Assembly (NCBI GenBank): GCA_964016885.1
Contig: OZ024741.1
Span: 66,588,001-66,652,000 of the forward strand
DNA: 64,000 bases
Source of the DNA: Eledone cirrhosa
Lineage: Eukaryota
Direction: 5' to 3'
The translations under genes and the position numbers were made by a program. The notes below the pieces were generated by a model that did no database searches, had not been told where the DNA came from, and saw only the letters and a program-made list of their open reading frames with translations. Below, one piece after another: positions 1,228 through 61,261 of this stretch. How positions within the stretch are numbered: the first letter of the stretch is position 1; each line of letters opens with the position of its first letter.

Positions 1228-1441
1228 GTTAAAACAATGAAATAAAAAATCAAGTCATTAGAAATATACTTCACTGCTTTACGATCGTTTCTAGGTGATG
1301 ATAATACATCGTAACTATACTTCGATATCAATCTATGTAAGGTTAGTTACAAAATATCAGATAAAGAGAATATTTACTTACATGCATATCACCAGCTGTT
1401 GTCAAAAGCAATGACTTGATTTTTTATTTCATTGTTTTAAC
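1228..1441 (-). mobile_element. Fold-back stub of probable Penelope-like 3' end, with half a hammerhead
   Basis: Perfect 32-bp inverted repeat at 1228-1259 and 1410-1441, next to (TA)n. The minus strand contains GAAAC-GATC-GTA (~1291-1280), preceded by a GGTGAT...ATCACC stem, but no CUGAnGA. Confidence 0.5.
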
Positions 1442-1551
1442 ATATATATATATATATATATATATATATATATATTTACATATATATGTATGTATACACC
1501 ACCCCCTCCACACACACATACATATATATATTTTTATATATAAATTCATAC

Positions 1552-1971
1552 CCATGTTTGTAGGTTTAGGTGTATACGCATGGACTGTTCTGCTTCCACA
1601 TATTTTTACATTTCCTTCAATGGCTTCCAATAGTAATTTTCTACTTCGCTATATAATTACTGGCTTTTAATGAAATTTATCTTCTCAATATTGATCCCCG
1701 GGGTACTAGTTACATAGTCGAGTATCTCAATAATCACAGGTATGTATATAAAAGTATTTCTCAAAGTGTAGTACTTGCAGATTTCTCATCAGTTTGATAT
1801 AGATGTTCGGCTCTTCTTTTACATTCAACATCAGCTTAACGTCTGCAGAATTGACTTCCATTACTGTACACTGCTCACACATTCCTTCTTTCAGAACGTC
1901 AGCTTCTGGAATTCTATCCATATGTATGTTTCCTTTGTATGTTTCTCCAAAATACAAATATCTTAGCAGGC
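1552..1971 (-). pseudogene. Possible degenerate host exon, CARD/death-fold-like
   Basis: Strong acceptor (tttgtttgttttttgcag|G at 1971) and possible donor ATGG|gtatga. Joining across two frameshifts gives IKLMRN..YYTLRNTFIYIPVIIEILDYVTSTPGINIEKINFIKSQ..RSRKLLLEAIEG, which resembles a CARD pattern by eye only. Confidence 0.3.
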
Positions 1972-2483
1972 CTGCAAAAAACAAACAAACAAAAAACATT
2001 AAAAAAAACCCAAAACAGAACTAAACAACAAAAACAATAAACAAACAAAATAAGACTCTACGCCCTCAAAAAAATAAGACACCCTCTCCTAAAAAAAAAA
2101 GAAGACAAATCAATGGCAAGCAAAGAAAAACATCATTATAAATGACATGCTAAATACTTCAAAGTTATCCTATACGATAGGCACTATATCATGTACTGTA
2201 CACAGCACACTGTGTACATTACAAGGCAATCACTTATCTATGAGACCCTGACTCCTGTTTGATTCGTAGAGATTCGGTCATAACATGAAGTAAATCTTGG
2301 GTATTTAAAGCACACACACACACACACATATATGTTGTAGTTTGCTTGAAGCATTGTATATAATATATATCGTTGAAAGAGATAGAAGGTTAAAAATGCA
2401 AAATGGACTGCAAGATGATGTAACGAAAAATAAAAATAATTTACCTGGTCATCTTTGTTTTTGTTGTTTTTGTTCTTTTATCT

Positions 2484-2523
2484 GTCCAATATTTCGGGAC
2501 CTAAAAGTCCCTTCTTCAGGGTT
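2484..2523 (-). ncRNA. Minimal type I hammerhead ribozyme motif in the inverted pLTR
   Basis: Minus strand reads CC-CTGAAGA-A-GGGAC-ttttag-GTCCC-GAAA-TATT-GG. Perfect 5-bp stem II, palindromic AATATT stem III. Confidence 0.7.
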
Positions 2524-4802
2524 TAAGAAACTACAACAACAGAGACAGCCAAGAAATTGCCACCACTGAGGTCACTGACACTTTAAACAATACCACAACT
2601 CTCGTCACAGACTTGACAGGATCGCTATCACCCGAAGAACTAAAACTCCTCAGACTTGGCCCAGCATTTATATTAACTCAGCGGCTAGACGACAGGATGA
2701 AACTAAATCTTGAAGCCAGCTTTTACCGAGCCACCTACCAACTCAAATGGCTCTCAGTAATAAACAACGCCCCTGAGAAATTAACTACTACTACGATGAA
2801 CAACACTAAATTTCCAATATACCACTTAGACCACCCACTCTCTGCACCGCCTATCAACCGAGAGCTTGACCTCAAACTCTTAGACTTAAGCATTCTATTT
2901 TTAGTGTATTACTGAAACATAAGAATGTACTCCCTAATCTCTCCAGGAAAGAACACTTCATTCTAAACAACATGCTAGAGAAGGACCACGTATACCTCCC
3001 TTCTGACAAAGGGAAATAATTCTGCGTCACCTCGAGAGACACATACAACAGCCTGGCATATGAGCACCTCAGCAACGGTGAACTATATACAGAAGTGACA
3101 GACATAACTGCATCCCAGATTGAAGATCACATCAACATCACCTGGACGGATATCTGCAGACGTAGACAACTCCCCAACAAATATAAAAACAACCTCACCA
3201 CCAGAAATAGCAGACTACTAACGTTCTACCACCTCATTAATACCCACAAAACCAGTGTTAATCTACAGATTAGACCAATTGTCTCGAGTATAGAAGGACC
3301 CCTCTATAAAATCTCCTGGTTCCTCTCCCAGATCCTCAAGCCTATGCTTGCTACTTTTCCTGGATATGTCAGCAGCTCCGACGAAGTCATACAAAGACTA
3401 CATCAACTACAACCTAACCAGCTTAAACTCAACAGATATGCCCTCTACAGGACAGTACCCGCTCATCCAGTGGTCAATCTAGTGACTTACTGCATCATTT
3501 CATACAACATATACTGCTTCGACCTCACTCTAGAAGACATACATTAGCTTCTATCTATCATCGTAGAAAATACATATTTCCCTTTCTACCACCACACATA
3601 CAAACAAACAACAGGCCTACCCATGGGGTCCGGTCTTTCAGGCCTTCTAGCCATTACTTATATGAACCAACTGGAACATCGAGCGCTCAACACCTGCCGC
3701 TCCTGTGTTTTCTTCGCCCGATACATAGATGATATACTCATCCTCACATCATCCAGTGAAGAGGCAGACATAATATCTACGGCATTTTCAAATACAAATA
3801 ACAAGATACGATTTACCACAGAACACCCCGATAAAAATGGTTCCTTGTCTCTGCTGGACTTCCTACTTAGAGTAACAGAAGAAGGTGATATATACACCAA
3901 CTTCTATAGGAAAGCTGCCAGCAGAGACCTGTTTGTGCATTATAGATCAGCCCTTTCCCTTGGTGCTAAAACTGGATACACAAGGTATGTACGCGTATCC
4001 GGAATAAATGTAGCAAGGCAGAGGACCAGATCACTCACACTGCACACTTCTCATATGTACTGAAGACGAATGGATACCCAATATCCTCAATGAATCGACT
4101 AAAAAATCAAAGTCGCCGCAGGCTTAAGACCTTCTCTAACGCCTGCTTCTTGAAATTACCAGGTTTCAGCGAAAGCATTACCACAGCTATCTTCAGAGCT
4201 ACACGCAAAGAAGGACTGGACATACAATTAGCACACTCCGGCCCTTCACTGCGTGGATACCTGTCTAAAAAGCAATCCAAAGACAACAAAAATCAATGCT
4301 CGCTGATTAACTGCCCTATCCGCGATACAGGTATGTGCCACTAATACGGACACATGTGGTATACCAGATCGAATGCAGCAAATGTATGGAGTTCTACATT
4401 GGTAGCACGACTCGAACACTCAACACTCGCATTAAAAAACATTTCAACACATACGCATCCTCATTAAAAAAACACATTGACAAATGTAGACACATCAACC
4501 AACATATTACTGTCATTATTAAAGCCAATGATAGAAATATGGGCAACTTAAGAATTGAGGAAGCCTTGCTCATATGTAGACTCAACTCGCAAATAAATAA
4601 TAGATTAGAACTCAGCACACAGTATTTGACATAAAAGACCCACCCACAAGCACGCAAACTAAACATCTCATACGAAAAATAAAATTGATTTCGCGAAATA
4701 CTATATTGGCAATTGACATCATTTACGTGGGAAGCAAAATAACCATAACAAATTTAATCTCTAAGAGTGGAAATTGGAACATTATCCACTGAAAGTTCCT
4801 TA

Positions 4803-4842
4803 AACCCCGAAGAAGGGACTTTTAGGGCCCGAAATATTGTAC
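4803..4842 (+). ncRNA. Degenerate minimal hammerhead motif in the 3' pLTR
   Basis: CCGAAGA-A-GGGAC-ttttag-GGCCC-GAAA-TATT. One core and one stem II substitution relative to the copy at 2484-2523. Confidence 0.6.
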
Positions 4843-5074
4843 AGATAAAAGCCCCCCCCAAACCCCCCCCCCCCCCAAAACAAAACAAAAACAAAATACA
4901 AAGATTACCACGTAACTTACTTTTACTTTTCGTTACCTCATCTTGCAGTCCATATTGCATTGTTTAACCTTCTATCTCTTTCAACATTATACACACACAC
5001 ACACACACATATATATATATATATATATATACAAACACACACACACATATATAAATACACACACACACACATAC

Positions 5075-60140: not shown

Positions 60141-60233
60141 ATATATATATATATAAATGTATATATATATATATATATATATATATATAATTATATATAT
60201 ATATATATATATATATACAAGTTATATATATAT

Positions 60234-60377
60234 ATACAAGTTATATATTAATATATATGATAAACACAAACGTGTTTGTATTGTAAGAGACAAATTTAGC
60301 TAGCATGCTAGCTAACTTTGTCTCTTACAATACAAACACGTTTGTGTTTATCATATATATTAATATATAACTTGTAT
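60234..60377. repeat. 144-bp loopless palindrome with ~70-bp 3' tail
   Basis: 72-bp arms centred at 60305/60306 (TAGCA|TGCTA), one mismatch. Confidence 0.95.
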
Positions 60378-60448
60378 TTCACTGCTCAGAAATGCCTCTT
60401 TCTTTGAGCTGATTAATTGTAAACGACTATGAGTTTAATCTCTAAATA

Positions 60449-60639
60449 TAATTGTTTCTACTTTTAGGCACAAGGTCAGCAATTACCCAGTGCAATACTG
60501 GTACTTTATTTTATCGACCCCGTAAGGATGAAAGGCAAAGTCAACCTCGGCGGGATTTGAACTCAGATCGTAAAGGGACGTAACTATGGTGGAAAGCATG
60601 GCGCCCGACCCTCTACGGATACTGCCAATCCACCGCCCT
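60449..60639 (-). mobile_element. SINE family A, full length
   Basis: Reverse complement of the consensus. Confidence 0.92.
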
Positions 60640-60987
60640 CTATATATATATATATATATATATATATATATATATATATATATATATATATATATATATA
60701 TATATATATATATATATATATATATATATATATATATATATATATATATATATATATATATATATATATATATATATATATATATATATATATATATATT
60801 TTTTTTATACACAAAACGCCAGCACCAACAGTTTATATATAAATATATATATATATTATACACAAAACGCCAGCACCAACAGTTTTCAAGAGGTGTCAAC
60901 ATGAATGGACCTGAAATTTTTATCTAAAGACATTTTTTTCCTATTCCAACCCACCCGTCCCTTCAATCTATCTTATTTCTCATTCTT

Positions 60988-61023
60988 TCTTCTGATGAAG
61001 GACTAGCGCCCGAAACGTTAAGA
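60988..61023 (+). ncRNA. Minimal type I hammerhead in a Penelope-like 3' stub (~60805-61110)
   Basis: TCTT-CTGATGA-AGGA-ctagcg-CCC-GAAACGTT-AAGA. 4-bp stem I and palindromic ACGT stem III. Preceded by an ORF end [12 protein letters not shown]. Confidence 0.75.
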
Positions 61024-61261
61024 CCCTCTTCCTGCTATTTCAAGCGTTAACCTAATATATTCCTTCCATATACTGTACCGATTGTGTTGTTGTTATTTCT
61101 GTTTATCTTTTACACACACACACACGCACACACACACACACACACACACACACACACACACACACACACACACACACACACACACACACACACATATATA
61201 TGTATATACAAAGTGTTAAAACGATCAAATTTTAGTTTAGAACATTTATTTGCTGACAAAC

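Follow-up and report, generated by a model that had tools for sequence, protein, structure and literature searches.

Hammerhead-bearing Penelope-like insertions and ORF-less tandem units at (TA)n tracts in a 64-kb window of the Eledone cirrhosa genome

A 64-kb stretch of the genome of Eledone cirrhosa (contig OZ024741.1, positions 66,588,001 to 66,652,000; the window) holds independent insertions of 13 repeat families, designated A to M, of which at least eight are Penelope-like elements (PLEs) and three are tandem units without an open reading frame (ORF). Together with the likely pasting of these insertions into (TA)n tracts by the reverse transcriptase (RT)/GIY-YIG protein of PLEs, this reading is given a probability of roughly 0.88. 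Ten hammerhead motifs were located, from eight mutually unrelated high-copy families (A, C, D, E, F, G, H and I), and are interpreted from their sequences as genuine type I hammerhead ends of PLE-related families. The remaining families (B, J, K, L and M) are present as fold-backs or half motifs. Coordinates are listed in Table 1; loci elsewhere in the genome are cited by L numbers.

The motif search covered the 35,433 non-satellite bases of the window, the simple satellites at 8195-36761 being set aside. A looser, second descriptor matched three sites against 0.04 in shuffles. The third descriptor, which permits a bulge and a lost U16.1 (threshold score of at least 9), matched seven sites against a mean of 0.03 (maximum 1) in 100 dinucleotide shuffles, a comparison proposed in a preliminary description of the window made from the letters alone. 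This descriptor was tuned on the window, and the independent evidence of the genome sample, the family alignments and covariation therefore weighs more. All hammerhead sites of the preliminary description are present in the sequence; what it had called a half motif near 1285 is whole, its core being U3-A8 and its stem-loop II 107 nt long, hence the total of ten. The surroundings, said to be unrelated to each other, do represent eight separate families, the pairs 2484/4803 (A) and 55248/55689 (F) each being one element.

All invariant core bases are kept in six of the ten motifs. Decay affects the motifs at 4807, 5678 and 50230, whose families (A, C and D) are intact in the majority; for A, C, D, F, G, H and I alike the family alignments show a core that most copies keep intact. 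The copies came from a genome search with 11 stubs as queries (all families except B and M), which gave 200-2482 first-look candidates per family, 40 candidates being scored for each query; the 11 families proved to be high-copy. The many distinct PLE families of the preliminary description are supported. The motif at 1285 was aligned with six relatives from the genome sample. Of the seven sequences, five have C3-G8 as the 3-8 pair and the other two U3-A8; double (compensatory) changes affect two pairs of stem I and three pairs of the long stem II, and 95.8% of the cells pair (28-47% in slid controls). The total of seven double-change pairs, from only seven related sequences, was equalled in 3 of 500 shuffles, the slid controls giving 0-2. 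In a relative of family F with 75% identity the palindrome of stem III is altered on both sides. The U4C change of the motif at 50933 is common to all 19 family E copies examined. U4C reduces hammerhead activity in vitro (PMC3088659), and L308, a close relative of E, retains U4 and has better stems. The ribozyme of E is thus probably weakened, and the family, fixed for U4C, would have spread in spite of it.

The insertions share a footprint. Ten families contributed 194 copies, and in 133 of these a tract of (TA)4 or longer was found no more than 25 nt from the matched 3' end. For random points the figure was 10.5%, and for a short interspersed element (SINE), which rarely ends at TA, 7 of 40 ends qualified. 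By family the proportions are 10/19 (D), 18/19 (E), 10/19 (G), 13/14 (I) and 17/19 (J), and most of the remaining copies reach TA after the tail. The enrichment of (TA)n at the junctions suggested earlier is thereby confirmed. TA adjoins most of the ends in the window, as claimed, the exception being the motif at 5678, which adjoins a SINE; the supposed role of (CA)n is secondary, since CA frequently precedes the terminal TA in family H only. An inverted copy lies upstream in 71 of the 194 copies, and in the window such caps are present at five of the eight hammerhead-bearing elements (A, C, E, F and I) and absent at D, G and H, where the earlier generalization does not apply. Two fixed 3' ends, 34-170 nt apart, occur in all seven families examined, and 88 of 94 classifiable head-to-head insertions have one tailed and one tailless arm. 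This one-tail rule also holds in the ORF-less units (F, 16/16; K, 21/22); five of the six exceptions belong to family J. TA flanks were scored in 104 insertions (10 at locus edges dropped), with TA on both sides in 58, on one side in 42 and on neither in 4; among the one-armed insertions TA was found on both sides in 10 of 32 and on one side only in 20 of 32. Only TA counts were taken from this comparison, the split of F into one-armed and two-armed insertions being inflated by the reference. In contigs of three sequencing runs, of unrecorded kind, loose ends at TA were seen for G and I. At L182 820-1490 three consecutive I-family 3' ends are separated by TA tracts of 24-34 units.

Six families (B, D, E, G, I and J) are tied to Hydra-type RT/GIY-YIG ORFs. 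D, E, G, I and J lie 3' of ORFs with a CxCX5C linker (five of five aligned), no CCHH and a terminal CxxC/CxH, while the RT remnant of B is 37-47% identical to G and its endonuclease is lost. GIY-YIG is C-terminal to the RT, with YIG/R/E/N aligned in the ORFs upstream of the stubs; Pfam matched it in L184 (1e-4) and L173 (0.003) and gave no match in L073, L041 and L192. DKT replaces DKG in G (L073) and I (L141), and the N-terminal RWK site is RWR in I and was not seen in G, whose start is broken. Because these marks match the definition of the Hydra clade in PMC8557442, the six families are assigned to Hydra-clade PLEs on their motifs. H, which repeats at the 5' as well as the 3' side of its ORF, is assigned in the same way to the Neptune clade by a CX2-5CxxC linker in L174 (decayed in L175) and a CCHH endonuclease, with CxxC within GIY-YIG. 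The ORF of family A has DKG and CCHH, and its linker, CX4CX7C, matches neither Penelope/Poseidon nor Nematis exactly. ORF remnants were found within 1.5 kb upstream of 31 of the 194 copies, an undercount given the long 3' untranslated regions (UTRs; up to 1.2-1.5 kb). The description of the insertions as ORF-less is right for most, which are short 3' stubs, and wrong for the 2484/4803 pair, which flanks a remnant of an RT and GIY-YIG ORF, and for the element at 59983, which keeps about 50 codons. Besides two ORF remnants, the preliminary description missed the Hydra identity of most families and the ORF-less tandem nature of three. A Naiad identity of B, E and G was ruled out by the C-terminal endonuclease, and apparent antisense ORFs beside the D and I motifs are inverted arms. 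RT-GIY-YIG ORFs of another PLE clade, with a YVDD core, also adjoin TA tracts (L068 35-1222, L091 and L015).

Families F, K and L appear from sequence to be retrozyme-like ORF-less tandem units, of 593, 446 and 562 nt, with longest ATG frames of 66, 49 and 108 aa. No PLE protein match was found upstream of 28 F and 19 K copies, and at 7 of the 28 F loci the tail runs directly into the next unit. Tandem arrays of the 446 and 562 nt units occur in L234, L231 and L233; the K array of L234 comprises 4.3 units with an inverted arm and TA at both ends. Each unit of F and K has one type I hammerhead, L only a doubtful motif. Since the ORF-less units share the PLE footprint, PLE enzymes are the likely movers, so that the units would hitch-hike on the same proteins. 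A further tandem hammerhead unit with a period of about 528 nt (L251 6637-7760, L254 and L245) accounts for 7 of the 73 motifs of the genome sample; it has a stem-loop II of 50 nt and a palindrome of 10 nt and is probably another retrozyme-like family. An ORF-less relative of F (75%; 1.3 units) at L244 2927-3950 is nested in the short TA tract that ends an I-like element.

The density of motifs in the genome was estimated with the third descriptor in 780 kb of evenly spaced sequence (78 stretches of 10 kb, sampled as 400 kb and 380 kb). The first sample gave 36 motifs against 1.7 in shuffles and the second 37 against 0.33, in total 73 motifs (about 2 expected) in 31 sequence clusters. This corresponds to 0.94 per 10 kb, about one motif per 11 kb, and for a genome size of 3.0 Gb to 280,000 motifs (bootstrap 207,000-357,000; about 3% false). 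Within 250 nt upstream of TA lie 59 of the 73 motifs (control 29%), 26 have a stem-loop II of more than 40 nt (41-123 nt), and 17 have a U3-A8 core. A broader reading is put forward tentatively, at slightly less than even odds: that the genome has about a quarter of a million hammerhead motifs, denser than any published count that was found, a third of them with a conserved rod-like, Hydra-specific stem II of 40-120 nt that could be a docking arm for the PLE protein and is missed by Rfam and standard descriptors, and that the two-start footprint of the ORF-less retrozymes is the first direct genomic proof of mobilization by PLEs.

Several results weigh against the PLE interpretation or narrow its base. 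The first, strict descriptor matched no site in the window and, with a relaxed core, one site, no more than shuffles. Rfam, searched as had been proposed, gave no hammerhead in the window at gathering score, none at E<=10 among the best 150 of 158 matches and none on two short stretches; its matches to microRNA families were simple-repeat artefacts below gathering score. On free folding the three-way junction formed at none of eight sites, with z-scores from -2.65 to +1.15, as is expected of dimer-type motifs. The family copies are the best-scoring 15-30 per family and thus a biased subset, and the one-tail proportion derives from 115 pairs, 21 with an unclassifiable end being dropped, among which overlapping loci were removed by span and ends only. 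Clade calls rest on motifs. Most searched stubs were linked to ORFs, but family C gave no link in 19 copies and three longer stretches, and F, K and L showed no homology to five autonomous 3' UTRs beyond TA-rich stretches.

Among other explanations, the preliminary description saw the window as one system forming a dense depot of ribozymes and hairpins; that such a local depot is kept for a host function is very improbable. The seven motifs in 35 kb of non-satellite sequence are about twice the sampled mean, but they were found with a descriptor tuned on the window, the density lies within the genome range (bootstrap P 0.12 for 40 kb and 0.35 for 60 kb), and 43 of the 78 sampled stretches also have at least one motif. 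Core bases have been lost in several window copies, TA tracts are slightly less dense than in the sample (0.79 against 0.93 per kb), and inverted repeats are equally ordinary, with 92 in 400 kb. The depot is largely refuted, and in place of one system there are independent insertions differing in age (about 77% to 99% identity). It is also improbable that F, K and L are satellites born once from PLE ends and spread at the DNA level by unequal crossover or gene conversion. Perfect tandem arrays do exist (99% identity in L231, 95% in L234), and local amplification is discussed in 10.64898/2026.07.22.740005; the copies, however, lie on many contigs with differing flanks; their 3' ends are fixed at TA and their 5' ends vary, and they show inverted arms and follow the one-tail rule.

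That the TA tracts are not targets and were added or expanded at insertion by the telomerase-related RT is unlikely, with an appreciable chance of being right. The one-sided TA at 20 of 32 one-armed insertions would fit it, and two-sided TA at two-armed insertions is undecisive, as these have a 3' end on each side. TA at both junctions of 10 of 32 one-armed insertions exceeds the approximately 10% expected, elements nest in each other's TA tracts (L244 and L250), and (TA)n is listed as a preferred Hydra target (PMC8557442); targeting and addition may both operate. A spliceosomal intron nested in the ribozyme is a rather improbable source of the long stem II. GT...AG and branch-like words are found inside or across stem II of I, F and G, and PLE introns of D. 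virilis overlap the hammerhead (PMC4209133), but the bases concerned pair as a covarying rod, relatives have not kept the CTAAC word of I, and the candidate introns of I would measure only 42-54 nt. The same three sequencing runs contained no GT-AG joint over G or I, a weak point since PLE introns are usually retained in DNA.

Under the preferred reading, insertion of PLEs and ORF-less units at TA, the PLE protein would nick both strands of a TA tract and start reverse transcription at two internal RNA sites just 3' of the hammerhead, one for each strand, by analogy with the anole Poseidon element in vitro. Two facing cDNAs that end early and join would leave a direct arm next to a short inverted one, giving the inverted caps and the one-tail rule; very short cDNA pairs would give fold-backs. 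Most stubs would retain the hammerhead because copying begins only 40-300 nt beyond it. Later elements would accumulate in the TA left at the insertion ends, with the stack at 50.2-56.0 kb and the nested insertions of L244 and L250 as examples. For the ORF-less units, transcription into tandem or circular RNA is proposed, which the same proteins would then copy in trans. Hammerhead cleavage is probably weak or dimeric, and insertion may do without the ribozyme.

Table 1. Insertions and hammerhead motifs in the window (hammerhead entries with two positions run from core start to cleavage site)
Feature	Position	Strand	Remarks
Family I	1097..1440	-	3' end of Hydra-type PLE; tail 130 nt; inverted cap 31 nt at 1410-1440; ORF upstream in L184, L185, L188
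Hammerhead, I	1405->1280	-	
Family A	2331..4990	+	Canonical PLE, 5'-inverted
Inverted arm and tail, A	2331-2532		
Hammerhead, A	2519->2488	-	In inverted arm
ORF, A	2505-4634	+	Broken RT + GIY-YIG; RVT_1 5e-10, GIY-YIG 1e-6
Hammerhead, A	4807	+	At 3' end; decayed
Family C	5601..5804	+	Old stub, 77-86%; 5601-5665 reads as inverted tail; SINE next
Hammerhead, C	5678	+	Decayed; stem-loop II ~60 nt; U16.1 lost here
Family D	49312..50350	+	3' UTR of Hydra-type PLE; ORF immediately upstream in L173, L176
Hammerhead, D	50230-50309	+	Decayed; stem-loop II 61 nt; U16.1 lost here
Family M	50363..50550	+	Fold-back between TA tracts; 3' end only
Family E	50646..51348	+	Young (97-99%) 3' end of Hydra-type PLE; tail 170 nt; inverted cap 50646-50689
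Hammerhead, E	50933-51046	+	U4C; stem-loop II 95 nt
Family J	54226..54462	+	Fold-back; 3' end of Hydra-type PLE; ORF upstream in L192, L194
Hammerhead-like core, J	~54304		Degenerate, doubtful
Family K	54510..55175	-	Fold-back 54510-54890 and short copy 55108-55175; 3' parts of 446-nt ORF-less tandem unit; hammerhead (Hydra-like, short) outside copies
Family F	55171..56018	+	593-nt ORF-less unit, circularly permuted; inverted arm 55171-55393; direct arm 55393-56018 (1.06 units)
Hammerhead, F	55333->55252	-	In inverted arm; U3-A8 core; stem-loop II 61 nt; stem III palindrome 10 nt
Hammerhead, F	55692-55773	+	In direct arm; features as above
Family G	59439..60145	+	Hydra-type PLE, young (95-99%); 3' UTR preceded by the last ~50 codons of the GIY-YIG ORF
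Hammerhead, G	59983-60091	+	Stem-loop II 90 nt
Family L	60234..60450	+	Fold-back; 3' end of 562-nt ORF-less tandem unit; hammerhead-like motif spotted by eye in L231, doubtful
Family H	60851..61112	+	Pseudo-long terminal repeat of Neptune-type PLE; ORF downstream in L174, upstream in L175
Hammerhead, H	60992-61019	+	Minimal
Family B	61203..62835	-	Hydra-type RT remnant 62516->61524 (GLYRDD) lacking endonuclease, flanked by inverted 3' ends
Half hammerhead, B	62775	+	3' half

In copies of family M elsewhere (L072, L086, L028 and L022) a hammerhead with a U3-A8 core lies upstream of the 3' end. This hammerhead, whose stem II has 4 bp and whose palindromic stem III has 12 nt, could fold as a monomer. 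A degenerate CACACCA satellite of 25 kb with extreme strand skew occupies 8195-33426 of the window, with arrays of (GTA)n and (CCA)n after it up to 36235; a 31-bp minisatellite (29 copies, 98% identity) lies at 42862-43760. One SINE family is present in many copies, some in tandem (480-700, 5803-5990, 7290-7450, 36810-37140, 44023-44138, 46833-47226, 56130-56315 and 60450-60640). Broken remnants of a long interspersed element (LINE) type, with endonuclease and RT fragments unrelated to PLEs, lie at 52390-54140 and 58380-58670; L177 150-3626 has an unbroken LINE-type endonuclease/RT ORF of 1159 aa. An inverted repeat pair of 100 nt (57994-58093 and 58849-58948; 85%, spacing 755 nt) may represent a non-autonomous DNA transposon.

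If the findings hold, autonomous and ORF-less families that are both young and leave one footprint offer a ready test pair for identifying the enzyme that mobilizes animal retrozymes. The one-tail rule, under the same condition, would extend an in vitro result obtained with a single element to a rule on PLE inversions that can be counted in genomes. Current searches overlook long-armed hammerheads; if this holds, counts of ribozymes in such genomes may fall far short, and half cores described in PLEs may in some cases be complete. The perfect fold-backs, tens of thousands in number, might also supply double-stranded RNA pathways.

The general pattern of PLE hammerheads and insertion has been described (PMC8557442, PMC4209133, PMC11167929), and a Hydra family with (TA)n preference and a hammerhead, Hydra-1_Obim, is known from Octopus bimaculoides (PMC8557442). 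The families described here share with the published Hydra clade the C-terminal GIY-YIG without CCHH, the CxCX5C linker, DKT, (TA)n insertion, the 3' hammerhead, the inverted 5' copy and the tail at one end. They differ in stem-loops II of 61-107 nt in D, E, G and I, against loops II of 3-10 nt in published Hydra elements (supplement File S2, PMC8557442; loop II in the supplement table is at most about 34 nt long, in PLE-X1_sMoe), in the U3-A8 core of I, in 3' UTRs reaching 1.2-1.5 kb and in the presence of at least six families in one window. With the minimal type I PLE hammerheads of PMC4209133 they share the extra base after A9, the palindromic stem III, the short stem I, U3-A8, mostly single motifs from truncated PLEs and opposite-strand pairs 100-700 bp apart; helix II is much longer here and palindromes reach 8-12 nt in many families. 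The total of about 280,000 motifs compares with about 9,000 in Xenopus and 4,000 in coelacanth (PMC4209133), the descriptors being different. Reported counts reach 120,000 retrozymes in axolotl and exceed 6,000 motifs in a coral, with PLEs as a strong candidate mover (PMC7229834), and 10.64898/2026.07.22.740005 makes the same argument from co-occurrence and homology for units of 51-972 bp. The ORF-less tandem units, each of F and K with one type I hammerhead, and the low GC are shared with these non-LTR retrozymes; here, in contrast, the units themselves bear the PLE footprint, with a TA target, an inverted arm and a single tail, and the hammerheads of F and K are of the PLE type and not of the canonical loop-loop type. 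In vitro the anole Poseidon element PAc cuts and extends both strands of AT-rich DNA from two internal RT start sites that delimit the tail, with the hammerhead dispensable for insertion (PMC11167929); tails here are 34-170 nt against 30-40, the clade is different, and the one-tail rule was counted in a genome. For O. vulgaris, 31 recently active Penelope-like families are reported in a text whose accessible part does not contain the word ribozyme (PMC13282606). A literature search, with most subscription papers beyond reach, found nothing on long-stem-II PLE hammerheads, hammerhead counts in cephalopods, such a density, PLE footprints at retrozymes or ORF-less units with a one-tail rule. The phenomenon as a whole is real and largely known PLE biology; its variant features are the density, the long arm and the footprint common to ORF-less and autonomous elements.

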